This document shows, piece by piece, positions 9,274 through 62,640 of a stretch of DNA of 64,000 nucleotides. The stretch's first letter is position 1, and each line of letters begins with the position of its first letter. The DNA is taken from contig CP175956.1 of the NCBI GenBank assembly GCA_046116545.1, positions 77,219 to 141,218 of the forward strand, given 5' to 3'. Position numbers and translations under genes: made by a program. Origin of the DNA: Candidatus Moraniibacteriota bacterium (GTDB lineage Bacteria; Patescibacteriota; Minisyncoccia; Moranbacterales; GCA-2747515). The notes beneath the pieces are model-generated. The model was not told the origin of the DNA and searched no databases. It worked only from the letters and a program-made list of their open reading frames with translations.

Positions 9274-9490
9274 GTCTTTGCGAACAGAAGTGATGCTTAC
9301 TGTGTTATGTGAAGCAATCTCAAAAGTTTATAAATAATCTAACCGAGATTGCTTCGTCGTACCTCCTCCACCCAGGTGGTCCATCTACTACGCTTTAAAT
9401 TCAGAATAGTCGCTATACAGCTCCTTTCTTCATTTATCTTGAACAGAGTTCAATTTATTATGCCCTTGTGGTACACCTTGACGCAATGAC
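9274..9490. repeat. Palindromic element family A, long variant. It has unit I (gtctttgcgaaca...gtgaagcaatctc) and unit II (gagattgcttcgtcgtacctcctccacccaggtggtcc...), and extends to cttgaacagagttcaatt...caccttgacgcaatgac.
   Basis: Two-stem imperfect palindrome. gaagcaatctc pairs with gagattgcttc, and gtctttgcga pairs with tcgcaaagac. The sequence recurs at 12 or more further sites. Confidence 0.8.
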
Positions 9491-12141: not shown

Positions 12142-12229
12142 GAGATTGCTTCGTCGTACCTCCTCGCAAAGACGATATCTAGTCATTGCGAACAGAACCA
12201 AAATCATCTGTGACCTGTGAAGCAATCTC
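12142..12229. repeat. Palindromic element family A (unit II then unit I, opposite order to 9274)
   Basis: gagattgcttcgtcgtacctcctcgcaaagac ... gtcattgcgaacagaacc...gtgaagcaatctc. Confidence 0.8.
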
Positions 12230-12236
12230 GATCATT

Positions 12237-12539
12237 TTATCCATTTTCTATCATTTTACCATATAAATCAACCCACTCAATATTACTATTTTCAATCAAT
12301 GCAATTTTATTTTTACGCGAACCACTTTTTATTTGTTTTTCTCTAGAAATTGCAGACTCAATTGATGGACATACTTCATAATGTACTAACTTATGCAAAT
12401 TATATCTTTGAGTAAATCCCCTTACAATATTATTTTTGTGTTCCCAAATTCGTTTTTGCAAATTAGTAGTAACTCCAACGTACAAAGTACCATCTTTTTT
12501 ATTCGTTAAAATATACACGCACGAAATTTTTTCATTCAT
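12237..12539 (-). CDS. GIY-YIG domain nuclease family protein (UPF0213-like)
   Basis: Motifs VYILTNKKDGTLYVGVTTNLQKRIWEHK and RPW-like. It is flanked on both sides by family-A repeats. Confidence 0.75.
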   Translation of the reverse strand: MNEKISCVYILTNKKDGTLYVGVTTNLQKRIWEHKNNIVRGFTQRYNLHKLVHYEVCPSIESAISREKQIKSGSRKNKIALIENSNIEWVDLYGKMIENG

Positions 12540-12575
12540 AATTTTGTCATATAATAAATCTCATGTCTTCATCTC

Positions 12576-12680
12576 GTCTTTGCGAGCAACTGTGACTTTT
12601 ATTATGTCTAGCGAAGCAATCTCCACCAGGTTTATTAATATACTCACTAAGATTGCTTCGTCGTACCTCCTCGCAATGAC
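12576..12680. repeat. Palindromic element family A. Its unit II overlaps the 3' end and supplies the stop codon of the GT4 gene.
   Basis: gtctttgcgagcaactgtgac...gcgaagcaatctc / ctaagattgcttcgtcgtacctcctcgcaatgac. On the minus strand, unit II reads ...V S L R G G T T K Q S stop. Confidence 0.8.
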
Positions 12681-13831
12681 ACATTATTATATAGCTCAAC
12701 ATACTCATTTGCCACATTTTCCCAGTTCATTGTCTCCGCTATCAATCTACTTGCATGTCCCATACCATCACATATTTCTGGATTTTCTATTAATATTTTT
12801 AATTTTTCTACGATTGACTGTACATCATTCATTTTTATGAGATAACCATTTTCTCCATTTCTCACAAGCTCCTCCGCTCCACCTGTTGGTGTCATGAGCA
12901 CTGGAAGACCTGATGCCAATGCTTCTAATAAATTATTACTCATTCCTTCATTTAACGATGGCATCACAAATACATCCGCACTATTATAGATACCTGCAGA
13001 TTCTTCCTTTGTATACAATCCACTAAATGTTACTCGTCCATCTAATCTATATTTTTTCACCTGAGCTTTTAACTCTTCCATTGCATTTCCCTCTCCCCCA
13101 GCTATTTGCATTTTGATATGAGGATACATATCAAATAATTCCACAAAAGCATCTATCGCATAATTAAATCCCTTTCGCCTTGATATTCTAGAAGCTAACA
13201 AAATTTTAAATTCTTTTTTTCTATCTTCAACTGTCCTGCTGCTACTACTATAAAAATCTGTATCCACTCCATTAAATATTTGTACAAATTCTTGTTCTGG
13301 CATAGTACTACTAGCAAGCTCTGTAAGACCTTTACTATTTGTTACAACATAATGTGCATCTTTCCATACTTTGTGAATTGTTGGTGTAATGATTTTATAT
13401 AATTTTTTAAATCTTTCACTGTAACCTGGCACATCAGCACCTCGCAGAGATACAATATATGGAATACCATATTTCTTTTTTAATCTTCTTGATATCACAC
13501 CACTAGGCACAGCAAAAAAACTATGCGTCAAATCATAATCATTTCTAGCAATTAATTTTTTGGCAAATTGATATGCCCTAAACGTGTACTTCAATAATTC
13601 TCCTTTTGTTTGATAATTTAAATTATTTGCACTTTTGCCTATTGGAAGTCTATGTATTATTATATTTTCCCCAACTCTCTCTTGCACGTATTCATCTATA
13701 ATTGAAGATGTAACAAGATCAACAAAAACATCATCTCGACGAGAATACTCATCCAAGATGTATTTTGTAGCATTTGCAGCACCACCTCCAAGTGGAGGAT
13801 ATTCATAATTAAAAAATAATACTCTTTTCAT
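12647..13831 (-). CDS. GT4-family (GT-B fold) glycosyltransferase. Its C-terminal 10 aa and stop codon are encoded by a family-A repeat.
   Basis: N-terminal motif FFNYEYPPLGGGAANA, and a C-terminal domain with an E-x7-E-like segment (FVMPSLNEGMSNNLLEALASGLPVL). It ends ...SLRGGTTKQS. Confidence 0.8.
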   Translation of the reverse strand: MKRVLFFNYEYPPLGGGAANATKYILDEYSRRDDVFVDLVTSSIIDEYVQERVGENIIIHRLPIGKSANNLNYQTKGELLKYTFRAYQFAKKLIARNDYDLTHSFFAVPSGVISRRLKKKYGIPYIVSLRGADVPGYSERFKKLYKIITPTIHKVWKDAHYVVTNSKGLTELASSTMPEQEFVQIFNGVDTDFYSSSSRTVEDRKKEFKILLASRISRRKGFNYAIDAFVELFDMYPHIKMQIAGGEGNAMEELKAQVKKYRLDGRVTFSGLYTKEESAGIYNSADVFVMPSLNEGMSNNLLEALASGLPVLMTPTGGAEELVRNGENGYLIKMNDVQSIVEKLKILIENPEICDGMGHASRLIAETMNWENVANEYVELYNNVSLRGGTTKQS

Positions 13832-15377: not shown

Positions 15378-15543
15378 GTCATTGCGAACAGAGCCCACAT
15401 CATTTGTAACATGTGAAGCAATCTCATTACAATATCTATGTCTTTGCGAACAGAGCCCATGTTCATTATGACATGTGAAGCAATCTCATTGGGTTTATTA
15501 GTTCACTTACTGAGATTGCTTCGTCGTACCTCCTCGCAAAGAC
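15378..15543. repeat. Palindromic element family A. Two tandem unit-I copies are followed by unit II.
   Basis: gtcattgcgaacagagcccacatcatttgtaacatgtgaagcaatctc, then gtctttgcgaacagagcccatgttcattatgacatgtgaagcaatctc, then gagattgcttcgtcgtacctcctcgcaaagac. Confidence 0.8.
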
Positions 15544-16929: not shown

Positions 16930-17043
16930 TCTAGCTTTTTTAATTTCTTAAATTCTTAACTAAATACTAACATACCAAATACACAGATTCAACTCTAAGT
17001 TGTATAAGTGCTCCCAAATTTCAGTCTTTGCGAGCAACTGTGC

Positions 17044-17186
17044 CATTTCATACGTCCTGCGAAGCAATCTCGTCAAAATATTTATGTCATTGCGAACAGA
17101 AACCACATCATTTGTAACATGTGAAGCAATCTCCGTAGGTTTATTAATGCACCCACTAAGATTGCTTCGTCGTACCTCCTCGCAAA
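17044..17186. repeat. Palindromic element family A. Two unit-I variants are followed by unit II.
   Basis: gtctttgcgagcaactgtgccatttcatacgtcctgcgaagcaatctc ... gtcattgcgaacagaaaccacatcatttgtaacatgtgaagcaatctc ... ctaagattgcttcgtcgtacctcctcgcaaaaac. Confidence 0.8.
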
Positions 17187-17238
17187 AACAAAATACTTTA
17201 TTGCCTCTCCTTGTAAAGACGTTGTTTTTTAAATGTTT

Positions 17239-22467: not shown

Positions 22468-22540
22468 AATAATACCTACCAACTCATCGCCATTGCTAGG
22501 AAGTACAACGAAGCAATCTCAATAATAAACTCCAGCATTC

Positions 22541-23539: not shown

Positions 23540-23622
23540 AATTTTCCTATCATATTACCTGTCTTTGCGAGGAGCGTTTAGCGACGTGGCAATCTCGACA
23601 ATAATACCACTAAACTCTCTAA

Positions 23623-24820: not shown

Positions 24821-24926
24821 CGAAGCAATCTCAAAAAGAACACTCCTCTGTCTTTGCGTCAAGGTGAATTGAGCTCTGCTCAAGAGAGGGACCACCTGGG
24901 TGGAGGAGGTACGACGAAGCAATCTC
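24821..24926. repeat. Palindromic element family A, long variant (intergenic)
   Basis: cgaagcaatctc ... gtctttgcgtcaaggtgaattgagctctgctcaagagagggaccacctgggtggaggaggtacgacgaagcaatctc. ORF 24854..25048 is a read-through of this element. Confidence 0.8.
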
Positions 24927-33482: not shown

Positions 33483-34283
33483 TTATTTATTTATAAATAC
33501 TCTATTACTTACAATATACCCATTTAATAACATCGTTTCTTTGTTATTATATTTAATTGTACTATTCTGCATATCACAAACATATCCACCCGCTTCCTGT
33601 ATAATGATATCACTTGCGCAAATATCCCACAAGCCACTTTTATTACTTGAATTAATATACAATTCTGCATCACCTACTGCAACTTTACATATTTTAATAC
33701 CAGCTGAACCCATAGGAGCCTGTTTCATATTATTTTTCTCTGCAATTTCTTGTTCATAATCTCCCAAGTGATTTCGACTTACTAGAATTCTGCCATTTTT
33801 CATTGGTTTTTTGCTAGTTGAAATTCTTTTAGGAAGATTCCTGCCTTCGTAGGAATGACAATAGAAAAATGCGCCTTTATTTTTCTCGGCATAATATAAT
33901 TCATTTAATACTGGTGCATACACTATACCAAAAATTGACTCACCCTCCTTATTTACTAATCCAATCATTATTGAAAATTCTCCTGTTTTTTGTATGAAAT
34001 CAGATGTCCCATCTAGTGGATCAATAATCCACACAAAGTTTGCTTTTTTTCTATTTTCAAAATCATCCTCAATCTCTTCACTTAATATTGGATAATTATA
34101 TCTTGATAATTTATCCATCAAAAAATTATTCACTGCAATATCTGCCTCCGTTACAGGTGTTTTGTTTTGTTTTTGTTCTATGGTGTATTCTTTATCATAA
34201 AACTGCATGGCGATGTTACCTGCTTCAATTGCTATTTTTATTATTTCTTGGATATTTATATTGTAATTTTGCATGATTATCAT
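33483..34283 (-). CDS. cysQ: Inositol monophosphatase family protein, probably 3'(2'),5'-bisphosphate nucleotidase (CysQ-like PAP phosphatase)
   Basis: Motifs EEIEDDF...WIIDPLDGTSDF, IVYAPVLNELYYA and GSAGIKICKVAVGDAELY. Genomic context is cysC and a sulfotransferase. Confidence 0.7.
   Translation of the reverse strand: MIIMQNYNINIQEIIKIAIEAGNIAMQFYDKEYTIEQKQNKTPVTEADIAVNNFLMDKLSRYNYPILSEEIEDDFENRKKANFVWIIDPLDGTSDFIQKTGEFSIMIGLVNKEGESIFGIVYAPVLNELYYAEKNKGAFFYCHSYEGRNLPKRISTSKKPMKNGRILVSRNHLGDYEQEIAEKNNMKQAPMGSAGIKICKVAVGDAELYINSSNKSGLWDICASDIIIQEAGGYVCDMQNSTIKYNNKETMLLNGYIVSNRVFINK
33836..33860. repeat. Family-D hairpin (gattcctgccttcgtaggaatgaca) embedded in-frame in the cysQ-like CDS
   Basis: Differs by 1 nt from the copy at 45483..45508 downstream of another gene. 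Encodes HSYEGRN within the CDS. Confidence 0.6.
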
Positions 34284-34294
34284 TACTCAAACTA

Positions 34295-34320
34295 GATTCC
34301 CGCCTACGCGGGAATGACAC
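34295..34320. repeat. Family-D hairpin (gattcccgcctacgcgggaatgaca) in the 3' intergenic spacer
   Basis: Short palindrome ending in ggaatgaca. Terminator-like position downstream of cysC. Confidence 0.55.
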
Positions 34321-34902: not shown

Positions 34903-36318
34903 TTATTTTTTGCTCCATTCGTGTTCAATGCGCATTATTCCTACTCCAGACCCTTTTTGTTTTTTAATTTTGATAATATGATTATTTAGTTCTTTTGTTG
35001 AATTAGAATCCACAATATCATTTTGTCCACTTTTATTTTCAAATAAAACAGCTTTTATATATATTTCCCCCGTGTTAAACATCGTGTTTTTAAAATAAAT
35101 TATAAATACATTTCTATCTTTTTGCCAACTGCAATTAAAATTATCTACATCTGTATTATTACCACACAAAAATACATTTGTTTCATTGTCAAAAATTTGC
35201 ACTGCTTGCACAAGATTATGCTTAATTTTTGAAACTTGCACTTCAATCTCTACAAAAAAATCATCACCCCATGTAATTTCAGTTAATTTATTTCTATCTA
35301 TATCAAAAACCTGTATATCTGTAATTATATTTTCATTTTTCACTTGTCTTTTCATACCACCTCTTAGTGATTTCTCATGTTCCTGCTCTTCTTTTTCAAT
35401 CCGTTCCTTTTTTTCTAATTCTTCACGTTGGTCTTCAGACATATTTTTAATAATATATTCATCACATACATCATTCACATCACCAGAACCAAGTAATTCA
35501 CCCTTATGTAATAATAAAGCTCTATCACAATATTCTCGCACTGTTGCCATACTGTGGGTTACTAATATTACAGTTTTTCCCCTCTCTTTATATCCTCTGA
35601 AAATATCAAGACACTTCTCTTGAAATCTACTATCCCCCACAGCCAATACCTCATCCATAATAAGTATTTCACGATCTGCATGAATTGACACACTGAAAGC
35701 GAGACGAGCCTTCATGCCACTTGAATAATTTTTTAATTGTTCGTCTATAAATTTTTCTAATTCTGCAAATGCGACTATTTCATCAAACTTTTCATCAATT
35801 TGTTTTTTTGTTAAACCTAGTACTGTCGCATTGAGATATATATTGTCTCGTCCTGATAATTCTGGATTAAAACCTATTCCTAGCTCAAGGAATGGTGATA
35901 TCATACCATTTACCTCAATTGATCCAGATGTTGGTTGATAAACACCTGCTAAAATCTTTAACAATGTAGACTTACCTGCCCCATTATGTCCTATAATTCC
36001 CAAAAATTCTCCTTTTTTTACTTCTACTGAAATATCTTTGAGAGCGTAGAATTCTTCATATGTATTTTTTTTCAAAGAATTCACAAAAGCACTTTTCATT
36101 GAATCAATTTTTTTGTGAGGAATTTTAAAGATTTTTGAGACGTTTTTTACTTTTACTGCTATTTCTTTATCTGGCTGAGATTGCTTCGTCGTACCTTCTC
36201 CACCCAGGTGGTCCCTCTCTTGAACAGAGTTCAATTCACCTTGACGCAAAGATGCATCTTTTTTTACTTTGATGCTTTTATCTTTTTTATTTGATTGTTG
36301 GTTATTTTTTTTATTCAT
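34903..36318 (-). CDS. wzt: ABC transporter ATP-binding protein of the Wzt/TagH/KpsT polysaccharide-export type, with a C-terminal substrate-binding (Wzt_C-like) domain. It carries an in-frame 84-nt family-A insertion near the N-terminus.
   Basis: Walker A GHNGAGKST, signature YSSGMKARLAF and Walker B ILIMDEVLAVGD. An extra ~180-aa beta-rich C-terminal domain is present. The N-terminal leader contains SLRQGELNSVQERDHLGGEGTTKQSQP, encoded by repeat A. Confidence 0.8.
   Translation of the reverse strand: MNKKNNQQSNKKDKSIKVKKDASLRQGELNSVQERDHLGGEGTTKQSQPDKEIAVKVKNVSKIFKIPHKKIDSMKSAFVNSLKKNTYEEFYALKDISVEVKKGEFLGIIGHNGAGKSTLLKILAGVYQPTSGSIEVNGMISPFLELGIGFNPELSGRDNIYLNATVLGLTKKQIDEKFDEIVAFAELEKFIDEQLKNYSSGMKARLAFSVSIHADREILIMDEVLAVGDSRFQEKCLDIFRGYKERGKTVILVTHSMATVREYCDRALLLHKGELLGSGDVNDVCDEYIIKNMSEDQREELEKKERIEKEEQEHEKSLRGGMKRQVKNENIITDIQVFDIDRNKLTEITWGDDFFVEIEVQVSKIKHNLVQAVQIFDNETNVFLCGNNTDVDNFNCSWQKDRNVFIIYFKNTMFNTGEIYIKAVLFENKSGQNDIVDSNSTKELNNHIIKIKKQKGSGVGIMRIEHEWSKK
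36177..36251. repeat. Palindromic element family A, long unit II, inserted in-frame in wzt
   Basis: gagattgcttcgtcgtaccttctccacccaggtggtccctctcttgaacagagttcaattcaccttgacgcaaagat. This is the reverse complement of the intergenic copy at 24850..24926. Confidence 0.85.
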
Positions 36319-41934: not shown

Positions 41935-44900
41935 TTATTTAATTAACTTTTTAAAAATAAACACACTAACAATCATCAAAAATAATAGGAATATTCCAAT
42001 CAAAATATCTTTGATTGATTTTTTGTTTTCGGAATTATTATCATCTTTTATTTCCTTATTTTCATTTTCTACTGTATTGTTTTGAGATTTCTCTACTTCG
42101 GTCGAAATAACGTCCTTTTCATTTGCCACATCATCCCCCAGAGATTGCTTCGTCGTACCTCCTCGCAAAGACTCATTATTAAAAATATTTTCCGTAATAT
42201 TATTTTTTTCGTCATCGTCATCATCATTGTCTTTGTCATCATCTTTATTTTCATTGCTTTCACTACTACTAAATACTGTACTTCCATCATTTCCATCCTC
42301 TAATGTAGTAGTTCCATTGATTTGTGGTACAACTTCATAATCATTACTTCCATCACCATCATAATCAGCTGTGAGTCTTGTAATATTTTCCAATCCAGTT
42401 CTTGGAATTGCAAAACTTACTTTTGTATTTTCTGATGTTGGTAGATTTTCCATTGTTAGATATGAGGTTACTTCTTCTCCTGCCTCCGTGATACTCACTT
42501 CCTCTAATTTGATAGTATATGAACCTGTATTATAACCATCCAACTCCACGATTATATCACTACCACCCCATCCTACAAATTTATGTTCTCCAAATACATC
42601 GTAATAACTATTTGGCATATTTTCTTCTATAATTTGATTTCCATTTTCATCTATTATGGGTCCTGTGTGATTTCCTTGATTGTCGTATAAATGAATGTCT
42701 AGTGGTGAATATAATGCCATTCTAAGTCTTTTTGCACTGTGTTTACTATGCTTTATTGCGTCAGTGTCATCTGGTCTATTTTTCGTGATATAATCAGACA
42801 ATTCTTCTTGAATTTCATGTTTACTGATGATATTTGAGATTAAATTTCGTAACGACTTAACTTCTAAAATATCTTTGTGCTTTCTATCTTTCGCAAAACC
42901 CTTATTTTCTTCATACATATCCAAAAAATATTTCTCAACATTCTCAGATTCTGACATCATAAGTGAACTTGGTGTTACTACAACATTATCTCCATCTACT
43001 GTATATTTTGGTATATATGATTCTACTGTTACATCTTTGCATTTCGTTCTTTTTATTCCTTCTTTTGTTACTTTATCTTCACATTCTACTTTTGTGATAC
43101 TTTCATAATCTATTTCACTTATTGTATCAAGCCCCCAGCCTCCTATTTGTATTAGATTTACATTTTCTGGTGGTGTCCAGTTATTTAACTCTTCGTGCAA
43201 TTCTTTATTTTCATCAAATAATTTCTCATTTAATATATTTGCTCTTTTTGTATCATTCTTATTTGGTTTGTGTCTATTATCTTTTTTTGCCAATAGAAAA
43301 TCCTTGAATTCATCATAACTATTTATTGTATCTCCATATGCTTTTTTGTATTTCTTGTATTCTGATTTTTCTGATTTAAAATTTATTATTGGTTTATCTA
43401 TTCTTCTGAAATATTCTTCTGTTGGTAAAAGTCCATAAGCAGATGGCATATTTCGTACTACCTCCCTAGCTTCTGCGTCACTGATAACTGAATTTAATTC
43501 TATTTTTTCATCAAATCCATACAACATTGTCAAGATTGCCTTTGATGTTCCCATTTGTGGTGAACTTACCATGACAATATTATCAACTTTATCTGTCATG
43601 TTCAATATTTCAAGTTGTTGCATTATGGATTTTGCTAGTAATCCACCATTTGAATGAGCTACAATTGTAACTTTTCCACTAACTGATGAGTCAGATAATC
43701 TCATCACTTCACTTATTGGATTTTTTATAGAACTCATTTCATAATTTGTTCCATTTATTGCAATATCGTCTACACTTTTTCTCCAATCATATGCATATAA
43801 AGAATAATCATTTATTATTCTATCATCTTTTAAGTTTTTTAAATCTCCAAAAAATCTTTTGTAAATATTTGGAGCTAATACACTAGGAAGTCCTGCTTCA
43901 TAAATTGGCTCTTCAGTGAAAATATCATTTATACTATTTCCATCTTCATCTAATAATATATTTTTGTAATCATCTCCACCTGGAGTAGGTGGCCATACTT
44001 GATTTGTACCGTCATATAATCTGCTAGCTTTTGCACCTGGTAAAAACAATACATTTGATGCAAAATCCGATGATCCTCTCCAATCGTATTCTAATACATT
44101 TGTATCTCCGCTTACTTTTTCACCTGCTGCTAATATTGCATAATCGTCTCCATTTTCATTAACAAAGTTACCTGTTGGACCGTTTGTATGTCCGTACCAA
44201 TTATTTTCTAAAATAACCTTGCTACTGTCATGAGTCATTGCATCATTTTCACATGTTTCACAACATGCATCATAAATAGCATCATTTTGATTATTGTTAT
44301 ATTCATCATCACAGTTATCATAACAAATATCTTCTCCTTCAAAGTCATAAACTACAACATTTGAAATTACTGCTATATTTTGTCCACTTTCTTCAAAATT
44401 AGAATTTTTAATATGTACATAACTATTTTCATTGTAATCTTCTTCAAGTTCCATCTCTACTTGAATATCTGCATACTTGCTATTTTTGAAAATAACATTT
44501 TCCATATCTAATTGTCCTGACATATGTAGTATTGCTGGTGCTTTTCGAATAGCTTCTTCATCTGCATAAACATTATTTGTTATGATGTCATGTATTGCTA
44601 TCCCTGGACAATGTAATTCATTGTAATCAAAATATTCTCCCAATCCATCAAATTCTACAAATTTAAAAAATGATGGTTCAAATATATAACCATCAATTTC
44701 ATACGTATCAAATTTAAATGCTGAAACTCCACCTAAATCACACTGCTCATCAAACTCATTTCCTTCATTAAATGGAGTTTTTGTAAAAACTATTTTATTA
44801 TCAATATCGCCAACTGCAACAATACGTCCAGCATCTTGTACTACGATATGCTTTATTGATATATGTGATCCAGCTTCAATAGTTACTGTTGCACCATCAA

Positions 44901-45090
44901 TGATATATACCGCACCATACTCACTCAAATCTGTATCACTGTTCCATGTTACATCTGTAGTAATATATAAGTCATCACCATACCAAGCGTTTATATATTT
45001 GTGTATATATAAAAAATCAAATCGCAATGGTGCGAGAATGATTATTAGGATTAGAATTGTATTGATCGACTTTAAGATAAAGTTTTTCAT
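41935..45090 (-). CDS. Large secreted alpha/beta-hydrolase (lipase/esterase, LCAT/PGAP1-like) with an acidic low-complexity region, an in-frame family-A insertion and a C-terminal TM anchor
   Basis: Signal/TM N-terminus. Nucleophile-elbow-like VTIVAHSNGGLLAKS. Acidic tract DDDKDNDDDDDEKNN. Insertion NESLRGGTTKQSLGDD. C-terminal TM ILIGIFLLFLMIVSVFIF. Confidence 0.55.
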   Translation of the reverse strand: MKNFILKSINTILILIIILAPLRFDFLYIHKYINAWYGDDLYITTDVTWNSDTDLSEYGAVYIIDGATVTIEAGSHISIKHIVVQDAGRIVAVGDIDNKIVFTKTPFNEGNEFDEQCDLGGVSAFKFDTYEIDGYIFEPSFFKFVEFDGLGEYFDYNELHCPGIAIHDIITNNVYADEEAIRKAPAILHMSGQLDMENVIFKNSKYADIQVEMELEEDYNENSYVHIKNSNFEESGQNIAVISNVVVYDFEGEDICYDNCDDEYNNNQNDAIYDACCETCENDAMTHDSSKVILENNWYGHTNGPTGNFVNENGDDYAILAAGEKVSGDTNVLEYDWRGSSDFASNVLFLPGAKASRLYDGTNQVWPPTPGGDDYKNILLDEDGNSINDIFTEEPIYEAGLPSVLAPNIYKRFFGDLKNLKDDRIINDYSLYAYDWRKSVDDIAINGTNYEMSSIKNPISEVMRLSDSSVSGKVTIVAHSNGGLLAKSIMQQLEILNMTDKVDNIVMVSSPQMGTSKAILTMLYGFDEKIELNSVISDAEAREVVRNMPSAYGLLPTEEYFRRIDKPIINFKSEKSEYKKYKKAYGDTINSYDEFKDFLLAKKDNRHKPNKNDTKRANILNEKLFDENKELHEELNNWTPPENVNLIQIGGWGLDTISEIDYESITKVECEDKVTKEGIKRTKCKDVTVESYIPKYTVDGDNVVVTPSSLMMSESENVEKYFLDMYEENKGFAKDRKHKDILEVKSLRNLISNIISKHEIQEELSDYITKNRPDDTDAIKHSKHSAKRLRMALYSPLDIHLYDNQGNHTGPIIDENGNQIIEENMPNSYYDVFGEHKFVGWGGSDIIVELDGYNTGSYTIKLEEVSITEAGEEVTSYLTMENLPTSENTKVSFAIPRTGLENITRLTADYDGDGSNDYEVVPQINGTTTLEDGNDGSTVFSSSESNENKDDDKDNDDDDDEKNNITENIFNNESLRGGTTKQSLGDDVANEKDVISTEVEKSQNNTVENENKEIKDDNNSENKKSIKDILIGIFLLFLMIVSVFIFKKLIK
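42141..42172. repeat. Palindromic element family A, unit II, inserted in-frame (encodes SLRGGTTKQS)
   Basis: gagattgcttcgtcgtacctcctcgcaaagac. Exact match to intergenic copies. Confidence 0.85.
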
Positions 45091-45183
45091 GTCTTTATTT
45101 TAGCATGCTTTATTTGTTGTGGTCTAGTTTTTTTGATATATAAACCATTTCTAACTAACGAGCACTACTCATTGTAGTGGCGT

Positions 45184-45241
45184 GGCCTTGTGCCCGCCAT
45201 GTAGATCTAATGCGAGGACAGCCACAAGGGCATGTCCCTAC
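45184..45241. repeat. Family C, degenerate copy
   Basis: ggccttgtgcccg...gacagccacaagggcatgtccctac. Confidence 0.5.
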
Positions 45242-45273
45242 AAAAAATAGATGTCACTCTTAAATGGCGAATC

Positions 45274-45321
45274 GAGATTGCTTCACATATCACAAATAAT
45301 GTCACTTCAGTTCGCAAAGAC
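45274..45321. repeat. Palindromic element family A, unit I in reverse orientation
   Basis: gagattgcttcacatatcacaaataatgtcacttcagttcgcaaagac. Confidence 0.75.
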
Positions 45322-45380
45322 GCTACACAAATGATACTGATTTTTCATTTAAAATTTGTTTTATACTTACGTTATATACA

Positions 45381-45420
45381 AAAACACCTCTCAGTCCCCT
45401 CCTTAAAAAGGATGGGAGGT
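45381..45420. repeat. Hairpin element family B, part 1
   Basis: aaaacacctctcagtcccctccttaaaaaggatgggagg. Confidence 0.7.
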
Positions 45421-45482
45421 TATTAAACTTACACAAAATAGATATTACATAATATTATAGGATTTTCTCAAACTTTTCGAAA

Positions 45483-45508
45483 GATTCCTGCCTTCGCAGG
45501 AATGACAT
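45483..45508. repeat. Family-D hairpin immediately downstream of the GT gene (terminator-like)
   Basis: gattcctgccttcgcaggaatgaca. Confidence 0.6.
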
Positions 45509-45514
45509 TGATTT

Positions 45515-46714
45515 TTATTTTAACTTACTTTTTAAATACTCATAATATTCCGCATTCTTTGTATTTTGTGTTGTATATTCTTTTATTGTTTTTTGATATG
45601 CTTTTTGTCCCATTTTGATTCTTAGATCTTTATTTTCTATTAACTGTGCTAGTTTGTCTGTCCATTCTTCTGAGTTTTTTGCTGTGAATCCATCCACTCC
45701 ATCTTCAATAGCATCTTGATATGTTTGATTGTCTATTGCTATTGTTGGAACTTTTACTATTCCTGCCTCAAAAAACTTTAATTCTGACTTTGCTTCACAA
45801 AATGGATTATTATATTCTAATGGCGCAAGATTAATATCACATTGTGCTATATTTGCAAAATGTTTACTACGCTTCACGTAGGGTAATTGTTTAATTCTAT
45901 CTCCAAACTTTTTCACTAAATCATTTTCAACATCCAATGGACCGACTAATAATAACTCTACATTTTTATACTTTTCCATTATTGTCATCAATGGTTCTGT
46001 GATTGTTGCAAAATCTTTGTTGTGGCTTATTGTTCCACTGAAGTAGCCTAGTTTTACTATATCCTCTCGAGATTGCTTCGTCGTCGTACCTCCTCCTCGC
46101 AATGACAATAAAGCTTTTTTTGCACCATCAATATCTTTTTTTGATAATTTATTTTGTACTATGAAAACTTCTTTATTTTCTTGTCTTAATTTGTTTGCAA
46201 GAAATTTTGTGGTTGTGGTTGCGACTTTCACATATTCATCTTTTAATATTTCTCCACCCACTCCATTTTCATAAAGCTTCTTTTCCAGACTATTCATTTT
46301 TTTATAATAATCCATATGTTCTAAATATTTTGGATCATATACCAAATCATCTGTTTCAAAAATGATTATCTTATTTTGTTTTTTTATTTCTTCTACTAGC
46401 TTTGCTATTTTTTTTGTATTTAAAGTTCTATGAAAAATAAATATTGAAAATTTATTTACATAACTAACTAGTCTTGGATTATCTTGTACTGTAACTGAGC
46501 ATTTGAATCCATTAAATTCTAATTCTTCGGCTATATGAGTTGTCCTGTGTAACGCACTATCACCTACTCCACCTGAAATAAATAAAATGTCTCCACTGCC
46601 AACCTTGCGAAATAATGCAAAGAACGCACTTAAAACACGTTTTGAACCATTGATGAGTCCATCTCGTTTTATTACTTGCCACGACTTTCCTATTTTAATT
46701 AAGAATGTATTCAT
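45515..46714 (-). CDS. GT-B fold glycosyltransferase (GT1/GT4-like) with an in-frame family-A insertion in the inter-domain linker
   Basis: C-terminal Rossmann domain with an E-x7-E-like segment (CEAKSELKFFEAGIVKVPTIA). Linker contains LSLRGGGTTTKQSRED. Confidence 0.55.
   Translation of the reverse strand: MNTFLIKIGKSWQVIKRDGLINGSKRVLSAFFALFRKVGSGDILFISGGVGDSALHRTTHIAEELEFNGFKCSVTVQDNPRLVSYVNKFSIFIFHRTLNTKKIAKLVEEIKKQNKIIIFETDDLVYDPKYLEHMDYYKKMNSLEKKLYENGVGGEILKDEYVKVATTTTKFLANKLRQENKEVFIVQNKLSKKDIDGAKKALLSLRGGGTTTKQSREDIVKLGYFSGTISHNKDFATITEPLMTIMEKYKNVELLLVGPLDVENDLVKKFGDRIKQLPYVKRSKHFANIAQCDINLAPLEYNNPFCEAKSELKFFEAGIVKVPTIAIDNQTYQDAIEDGVDGFTAKNSEEWTDKLAQLIENKDLRIKMGQKAYQKTIKEYTTQNTKNAEYYEYLKSKLK
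46068..46106. repeat. Palindromic element family A, unit II, with internal triplet duplications, inserted in-frame
   Basis: gagattgcttcgtcgtcgtacctcctcctcgcaatgac. The tcg and cct triplets are duplicated relative to the canonical unit. Confidence 0.85.
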
Positions 46715-62372: not shown

Positions 62373-62400
62373 TTGTCATTCCTGCGTAGGCAGGAATCTT
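62373..62400. repeat. Family-D hairpin (gtcattcctgcgtaggcaggaatc) in the grpE-dnaK spacer
   Basis: Read from the sequence. A related tggaatgacaa lies at 62490..62510. Confidence 0.5.
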
Positions 62401-62640
62401 TCTGTAATTTCAAAGATATTTTATAATCTGTTCAAAAGATTCCGGACAATGATATTTTTTGCCAATCACTTTGTTCTTGGAAAAATATACATTTCTGGAA
62501 TGACAATTTATATATGTTACTAACTTGATTGATTAAACTAGTTATAAATTGAATATTTATCATTCTCATGAACATAGAATCCTCGCGATTAAATTCTATA
62601 TTCATTTTGAATGACAATATTCTCAATGTTTGATTATTAA

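Follow-up and report, generated by a model that had tools for sequence, protein, structure and literature searches.

A candidate Ssn/SRM single-stranded DNA endonuclease system with ATTGC-class repeats in a Moraniibacteriota genome

Small GIY-YIG nucleases that recognise dispersed palindromic repeats are known from Neisseria, and we compare with them a gene for a GIY-YIG protein of 100 amino acids (aa), here called ssn, and the surrounding palindromic repeats (family A) in a 64,000-nt stretch of the genome of a Candidatus Moraniibacteriota bacterium (contig CP175956.1, positions 77,219 to 141,218; hereafter the window). SsnA of N. meningitidis, a 94-aa GIY-YIG protein (CDD cd10448), binds the NTS repeat CGTCATTCCCGCGMAVGCGGGAATCYRG as single-stranded DNA (ssDNA) only and cuts the same strand a few nucleotides upstream of the repeat, leaving double-stranded DNA (dsDNA) and RNA uncut (Chenal et al., Nat Commun 2025, PMC11893778). 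Binding depends critically on the C following the stem, and cutting on the three nucleotides preceding the stem (GTC); a split hairpin is also cleaved, and each of the substitutions Y6A, Y17A and E64A abolishes cleavage (PMC11893778). Homologs in N. elongata, N. wadsworthii and Wolbachia pipientis cut their own repeats, at least one Ssn-related motif (SRM) lies near 71% of the homolog genes, and 42% have one on both sides (PMC11893778). SsnA lowers transformation by NTS-bearing DNA, and repeat-rich Ssn hosts are often symbionts. The NTS-ssnA-NTS layout has been likened to an insertion sequence (IS) or to the REP-RAYT arrangement, with domestication of a mobile element as the authors' hypothesis (PMC11893778). 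A second group of repeats with a similar tag, the CGTC-tagged repetitive extragenic palindromes (REPs), includes dRS3 of Neisseria and RPE-4 and RPE-6 of Rickettsia and is said to lack a dedicated enzyme (Di Nocera et al. 2013, PMC3733652).

The first-pass annotation of the window had placed a 100-aa GIY-YIG open reading frame (ORF) at 12237-12539 between repeats at 12142-12229 and 12576-12680. ORF, coordinates and domain are confirmed, the last by a match to Pfam PF01541 (E=1.3e-17, residues 7-79 of the 100-aa protein) that denotes the GIY-YIG superfamily domain only. Since the minus strand carries the gene, the element at 12142-12229 follows its stop and that at 12576-12680 is upstream of its start, so that the two sides had been interchanged, and the distances of 8 and 37 bp were each off by one (Table 1). 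The N. gonorrhoeae ortholog of SsnA, a 94-aa ORF surrounded by canonical NTS repeats, served as the Ssn comparison sequence in place of the N. meningitidis protein; it was found by tblastn of a plasmid collection in which two N. gonorrhoeae chromosomes are filed. The window protein shares 48% identity with it over 92 aa without gaps (BLASTP, E=2e-34). In the tblastn search it hit a single N. gonorrhoeae locus with E=8e-24, far below the 1e-10 cut-off of Chenal et al., and thus counts as a homolog by their measure. Y9, Y20 and E67 align with the catalytic Y6, Y17 and E64 of N. meningitidis SsnA and are invariant in 34 homologs. An AlphaFold model (pLDDT 89.9) predicts a single compact domain of GIY-YIG topology, the best solved structural matches of which are UPF0213 BH0048, Slx1 and the N-terminal domain of UvrC. 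The earlier label 'UPF0213-like' has a basis in the sole PDB sequence match, BH0048 (PDB 1ZG2, E=1.5e-5, 31% identity), no Ssn structure being among the PDB entries searched. The label is nevertheless imprecise. The minimal GIY-YIG fold is shared with UPF0213/YhbQ-type proteins and the Slx1 nuclease domain, whereas the sequence similarity is distant and association with repeats has been reported for Ssn, not for them. PADLOC defence models gave noise-level matches only, so that the window protein is not a recognised defence protein.

Family-A units have conserved ends, 5'-GTC[A/T]TTGCGA...GAAGCAATCTC-3', and a variable middle, and occur in sizes of 32 nt (short), 36-38 nt, 47-49 nt (long) and 77 nt. 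The window holds about 20 of them at 12 sites, mostly as inverted dimers, and the 26-nt core of the short unit alone is present in five exact copies where none is expected. In 20 units checked, the tag GTC was found in 17, preceded by a varying base, the stem started with ATT or TTT and the tail read CTC or CTT. The underlying design, which we call the ATTGC class, comprises a closing helix of 4-5 bp, (A/T)TTGC/GCAA(T/A), a conserved GA/GA(A) module, a second helix and a loop. The elements on either side of ssn, first taken as two copies of one element, are each a dimer of a short 32-nt and a long 48-nt unit, and their arrangements are opposite. In the dimer upstream of the gene (12576-12680) the tags are on the outside and 25 nt separate the inward-facing tails (predicted fold -15.5 kcal/mol, z=-4.2); its short unit overlaps the 3' end of a glycosyltransferase ORF (12647-13831), to which it contributes the last 10 residues, SLRGGTTKQS, and the stop codon.

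Units lie within 40 nt of both gene ends at ssn alone among the 49 ORF-genes of the window. At 100 nt two GT2 glycosyltransferase genes are bracketed too, and since units fill most spacers of the surrounding cluster, the window taken alone is weak evidence of a specific link. Stronger evidence comes from 80 loci obtained by a scan of species-representative genomes with homolog alignment and spanning Proteobacteria, Saccharibacteria, Doudnabacteria, Omnitrophota, Chloroflexi, Cyanobacteria, Planctomycetes and other groups. The commonest 8-mers shared by their 400-nt flanks are pieces of two related repeats, GTCATTCC...GGAATCC and GTCATTGCGAG...GAAGCAATC. A generic unit was defined as GTC, a 5-nt stem start with [AT]T first, 3-73 nt, the reverse complement of the stem start, and C. 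Such units are found no more than 150 nt from the gene in 69 of the 80 loci and on both sides in 55; the co-occurrence that the first-pass annotation had proposed to check is therefore common but not absolute, 11 loci being without a unit at this distance. Unit density is 8.35/kb near the gene versus 0.34/kb in the remaining roughly 640 kb, which amounts to a 25-fold enrichment (197 units observed, 8 expected). Orientation is likewise biased. Of 62 nearest upstream units, 48 carry the tag on the sense strand and 14 on the opposite one; of 62 nearest downstream units, 57 are inverted; and 44 of the 55 two-sided loci show the layout unit, gene, inverted unit, with the tags outward. Together, the comparative data indicate that the association between nuclease and repeat is highly non-random.

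The association also holds in the reverse direction. At least 120 metagenome stretches, with G+C contents of 32-60% (window: 32%), contain the exact 30-mer GTCWTTGCGAGGAGGTACGACGAAGCAATC, which represents the short unit of the window. An Ssn homolog is encoded at 12 of these 120 loci (10%), and at 8 of the 12 it is no more than 300 nt away from the unit. A functional connection of the nuclease with the repeat, as initially suspected, is thus upheld by the enrichment, by its reciprocal and by the published biochemistry of homologs (PMC11893778). Repeats without a nuclease gene, which the first-pass annotation had named as evidence against such a link, do exist, as 19% of SRM-rich genomes have no Ssn homolog (PMC11893778), yet the association is still strong. 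Conservation of the 30-nt unit across phyla is unusually high for a non-coding repeat. A copy with one mismatch flanks ssn in a metagenome-assembled genome of Nostoc (L071).

Repeat class and protein sequence vary together. The signature site covers residues 72-77, at the end of the helix bearing the catalytic Glu and in the following turn. Proteins of the G-type (REKQIK[AGS]G[SNP]R) are accompanied by ATTGC-class units in 22 of 24 loci, and those of the W-type (REKxxKxWxRxWK), to which Neisseria SsnA belongs, by units of a second class, ATTCC, in all 34. The nearest-neighbour protein has the same repeat class in 55 of 58 cases. Among homologs adjacent to the 30-mer all seven with a readable motif are G-type, and two of the three located more than 2 kb from it are W-type. 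The window protein belongs to the G-type, as expected if family A is its cognate site, and ATTGC-class units likewise flank the genes of its nearest relatives (79% and 68% identity). While the published SRM motif finds a repeat within 300 nt in 37 of the 80 loci, the ATTGC class adds about 24-26, and it may explain a large part of the roughly 29% of Ssn homologs for which no repeats were reported.

Table 1. Location of the ssn gene, family-A units and ATTCC-class hairpins in the window.
Feature	Position	Strand	Remarks
Solo dimer: long 9274-9321 + truncated 77-nt-type 9345-9382	9274-9382		family A
Short 32-nt unit	12142-12173	minus (tagged)	tag-to-tag dimer with 12182-12229, 8-nt gap; dimer ssDNA fold -18.3 kcal/mol, z=-5.3
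Long unit (ATTGC-class SRM)	12182-12229	plus (GTC-tagged strand)	ends 7 nt past ssn stop; inverted relative to gene, the canonical downstream orientation
ssn gene, 100-aa ORF, ATG start	12237-12539	minus	single-domain GIY-YIG nuclease, G-type Ssn subfamily; motif REKQIKSGSRKNK, residues 66-78
Long unit	12576-12623	plus	36 nt upstream of ssn start; tagged strand opposite gene sense strand, non-canonical
Short 32-nt unit	12649-12680	minus	tag on gene sense strand; canonical upstream orientation but second in line
Solo cluster: long 15378-15425, long 15440-15487, inverted short 15512-15543	15378-15543		15440-15543 fold -21.3 kcal/mol, z=-6.0
Solo cluster: two long + inverted short	17024-17189		family A
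Degenerate short unit	22489-22520	plus	family A
36-nt unit	23561-23596	plus	sequence type of the units flanking ssn in relatives L085-L087
77-nt unit: short unit with 45-nt internal insert	24850-24926	plus	family A
77-nt unit	36177-36253	minus	in frame within 471-aa ORF
Short unit	42141-42172	minus	in frame within 1051-aa ORF; peptide SLRGGTTKQS
Long unit	45274-45321	minus	in spacer 45091-45514; orthologous spacer in L085-L087 holds ssn
38-nt unit	46069-46106	minus	in frame within glycosyltransferase ORF 45515-46714
Solo dimer, two long units, tags outward	59828-59947		fold -23.1 kcal/mol, z=-6.3
ATTCC-class hairpins	33836-33859, 34295-34318, 45483-45506, 62375-62398		plus 62438-62504 with long loop

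From these sequence comparisons, the locus is likely to be an Ssn/SRM system, in which the gene encodes an ssDNA endonuclease of the Ssn family (cd10448) and the family-A repeats are its cognate SRMs. The likeness extends from the protein, a single GIY-YIG domain of about 94-100 aa with the aligned catalytic Tyr/Tyr/Glu conserved, to the oriented repeats on both sides with a 5' GTC tag, an AT-start stem and a C after the stem, and to the many scattered copies near surface-related genes, often as inverted dimers. When single-stranded, the GTC-tagged strand, 5'-GTC-[A/T]TTGC-GA-(helix II + loop)-GA(A)-GCAA[T/A]-C-3', would fold as a hairpin. By homology, a monomer of roughly 100 aa would bind this hairpin via the stem sequence, the 3' C and the 5' GTC, all three of which are conserved in family A. 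It would then hydrolyse the same strand a few nucleotides 5' of GTC with Y9, Y20, E67 and Mg2+, sparing duplex DNA, RNA and the complementary strand. Nicking of the palindrome as a duplex, as the first-pass annotation envisaged, does not agree with the characterised homologs, which act on ssDNA, on one strand and a few nucleotides 5' of the repeat (PMC11893778). Preference for ATTGC over the ATTCC type of Neisseria may lie in the G-S signature after the catalytic-Glu helix, with which it correlates. The arrangement of unit, ssn and inverted unit may be the ancestral way in which the gene is packaged with its sites; if so, the immediate upstream unit would have been rearranged here. More speculatively, cutting of unit-bearing ssDNA, such as transforming strands or intermediates of replication and repair, might modulate recombination at unit-dense loci, in the window the envelope-glycan cluster at about 11-25 kb. 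By analogy, such a role in recombination is our leading guess for this host from the candidate phyla radiation (CPR).

The link between nuclease and repeat is not new, as it was published in 2025 (PMC11893778). Additions beyond the main text of that paper are modest: a CPR host, the ATTGC repeat class and the covariation of G-S and W signatures with repeat class. The first would place an Ssn system in a small-genome CPR bacterium, with about 25 units in the 64 kb of the window, in keeping with the published trend that repeat-rich hosts are often symbionts. The second defines a widespread class whose stem contains G.A and which escapes the published search motif. The third, G-S versus W...W, makes a short protein segment a candidate specificity determinant and bears on the proposal to employ Ssn enzymes as programmable cutters of ssDNA. 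Apart from the CPR (Patescibacteria) host, the locus differs from the described Ssn systems in the stem, ATTGC with a G.A module in family A versus ATTCCCGC in Neisseria, in the loops (3 to about 55 nt versus 4-5 nt) and in the G-S of the protein where Neisseria SsnA has W...W.

Several observations weigh against the assignment to Ssn/SRM. The published SRM motif, HGTCWYN(0-2)YYVSBRHN(0-5)WNVSBRGN(0-2)RNCYNB, which is a search tool and not a family definition, matched none of the family-A units, its sole match in the window being an ATTCC-class hairpin at 34292-34319. The enzymes that can be typed, N. meningitidis and N. gonorrhoeae SsnA, are W-type, and the tested Neisseria repeats NTS and NTSvar are not of the ATTGC class (PMC11893778). 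For the proposed part played in transformation, the extrapolation starts from a single species. The statistic for the pairing of signature and repeat class (Fisher p=5e-14) ignores kinship, and the nearest upstream unit of the window ssn has the minority orientation, a further difference from the described systems. Single family-A units fold poorly, with -1.5 to -3 kcal/mol and z about 0 under standard DNA nearest-neighbour parameters, compared with -8.9 kcal/mol and z=-3.9 for the Neisseria NTS. Since single units gave no folding signal, the stem was tested by covariation instead. Of 130 distinct ATTGC-class units, 121 have a Watson-Crick pair at the two ends of the stretch enclosed by the GA module, versus 29% of shuffles, and the unit at 46069-46106 carries matching 3-nt additions on both arms (+GGA, +CGA). 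Tandem G.A pairs and GNA loops stabilise DNA hairpins, and we propose, from this general knowledge, that tandem G.A pairs lend added stability to family-A units. As ssDNA, the dimers fold strongly (-15 to -23 kcal/mol, z between -4 and -6). The dominant predicted fold, however, is a long hairpin between the units, so that the boxes would be double-stranded, a form that the Neisseria enzyme does not bind.

Some loci suggest that units and gene have changed position. In relatives whose Ssn is 79% identical (L085-L087), ssn has a glycosyltransferase gene on one side and the gene for a large protein on the other. The orthologs of these neighbours in the window, at 45515-46714 (77%) and 41935-45090 (56%), are adjacent without ssn; their spacer contains one ATTCC-class and one family-A unit only, and alignment of the two orthologous spacers revealed no ssn remnant in that of the window. 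The glycosyltransferase ORF next to the window ssn (12647-13831) was also considered as ortholog of the upstream glycosyltransferase of L085-L087 and was ruled out by alignment, the true ortholog being that at 45515-46714. For homologs with 68% and 72% identity the gene context is different again. These differences are compatible with movement of the units and of the cassette, without proving it, and the ssn system might have a selfish or a domesticated mobile origin.

Such differences are also what an element able to move autonomously, comparable to a REPtron or an IS but with a GIY-YIG enzyme, would leave behind. Unit, ssn and inverted unit would move as a whole, the solo dimers would be non-autonomous derivatives, and the nuclease would be the missing mobilising enzyme of CGTC-tagged REPs. 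We regard this account as unlikely, though it is compatible with the Ssn/SRM explanation. Inverted units with outward tags, the prevailing layout at two-sided loci, would place the predicted cuts 5' of each tag just outside both ends of the cassette. The occurrence of ssn at different loci in two related Moraniibacteriota and of close homologs in varied contexts fits as well, as do the units in frame inside ORFs, the many exact unit copies, the sharing of one 30-mer by contigs of such different G+C content and the different flanking units in relatives with 79% identical proteins; the question itself was left open by Chenal et al. (PMC11893778) and Di Nocera et al. 2013 (PMC3733652). On the other hand, GIY-YIG enzymes are hydrolytic, and we know of no strand-transfer or ligation (joining) activity among them. 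Inspection by eye around six short units showed neither a target-site duplication nor a conserved insertion site, tblastn found no ssn copy in the 64-kb window beyond the one described, and no unit-free empty site was recovered. Homologs are nearly absent from phages and, in the plasmid collection, reside only on non-mobilisable megaplasmids or chromids. Loss of a paralog or a rearrangement would also yield different loci in two genomes. We are slightly more doubtful that the cassette mobilises itself as an ssDNA element, or did so until recently, with the dimers as its offspring and with G-type/ATTGC and W-type/ATTCC as co-evolving lineages. If true, Ssn would be the long-missing mobilising enzyme of the CGTC-tagged REPs and of RPE-like elements.

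With REP/REPIN-RAYT systems (REPtrons) there is only an architectural analogy. In both, one copy of an enzyme gene lies between inverted tagged hairpins, the repeat is also dispersed as dimers, and hairpins are recognised as ssDNA, which for Ssn is known from the homologs. In contrast, RAYTs are HUH tyrosine transposases (IS200/IS605-like Y1) and GIY-YIG enzymes hydrolytic, the tag is GTAG instead of GTC, and transposition is a hypothesis for Ssn. With the CGTC-tagged REPs, family A has in common the (C/T)GTC tag, the AT-start stem, a short 3' tail of 3 nt, the predominance of inverted dimers and in-frame intragenic copies. Unlike those REPs, whose stems have 8-9 bp and whose loops have 4-5 nt, it has 4-5 canonical pairs, the GA module and variable loops. 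The four ATTCC-class hairpins of the window do meet the stem and loop definition of CGTC REPs.

A classical free-standing GIY-YIG homing endonuclease, which would break both strands at gene-less palindromes and copy itself by repair, is very improbable. It would account for the catalytic domain, for weak, sub-threshold similarity to models of group I intron endonucleases and homing endonucleases, and for the gene-less dimers as possible targets. However, the NCBIfam match (TIGR01453) reaches 27 bits against a cut-off of 56 and covers residues 6-39 only, and with about 100 aa the protein lacks the DNA-binding domain of I-TevI-type enzymes, neither Pfam nor the AlphaFold model revealing a second domain. 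Neisseria SsnA, moreover, leaves duplex DNA uncut (PMC11893778). The comparison with homing enzymes in the first-pass annotation was misleading for a bare catalytic domain that is rare in phages and confined, among plasmid records, to non-mobilisable replicons. That family A consists of generic intergenic palindromes, for example transcript-end stabilisers or structural sites, with the nuclease gene merely among them, is hardly credible: units do occupy 8 of about 13 spacers at 9-25 kb and bracket the two GT2 genes, and neither an Rfam family (gathering thresholds, whole window) nor a terminator-like site at the locus was found, promoter and terminator counts equalling those of shuffles, so that neither scan points to a function of the units, but the enrichment and strong orientation bias in unrelated phyla, the reciprocal enrichment, the covariation of protein motif and repeat class and the direct biochemistry on homologs (PMC11893778) speak against coincidence.

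Beyond the ssn locus, units are dense around a glycan/envelope cluster at about 11-25 kb that encodes LPG_synthase_TM, GT1/GT4, UDP-glucose dehydrogenase, GT2 (three genes) and DUF4349 proteins, which resembles the clustering of NTS around surface-structure genes in Neisseria. Three ORFs contain family-A units in frame (36177-36253, 42141-42172 and 46069-46106), with the peptide (L)SLRGG(G)TT(T)KQS, a behaviour reminiscent of RPE; the intragenic unit site of the glycosyltransferase ORF 45515-46714 is also occupied in the L085-L087 ortholog. The 77-nt units (24850-24926, 36177-36253 and the truncated 9345-9382) are short units split after GTCTTTGCG by the same 45-nt insert, which holds the palindrome CCACCTGGGTGG and a TTGAGC...GCTCAA hairpin. 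The insert has the look of another small element, lodged at one constant position of the unit.

The ATTCC-class hairpins of the window are compact, (T)GTCATTCC[CT]GC-NNNN-G[CT]GGAATC, and nearly identical in design to the Neisseria NTS. As tblastn found no W-type ssn in the window, the covariation described above suggests that they should belong to another Ssn elsewhere in the genome or be relics. One W-type homolog with 72% identity to the window protein (L090) is flanked by another stem class (GTCATTCTGAG.../GTCATCC...), and its gene adjoins an AbiEii-family gene and a gene for a UvrA-like ATPase, a possible defence-island context. Several metagenome assemblies with a protein identical to that of the window (L001-L003) stop within a few hundred nucleotides of the gene, consistent with flanking repeats breaking short-read assemblies. 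In another homolog (P0074), the annotated N-terminal extension MTRCTKRHCEE...RGNLF resembles a translated upstream repeat unit; it appears to be a gene-calling artefact, one that is probably common in the Ssn family.

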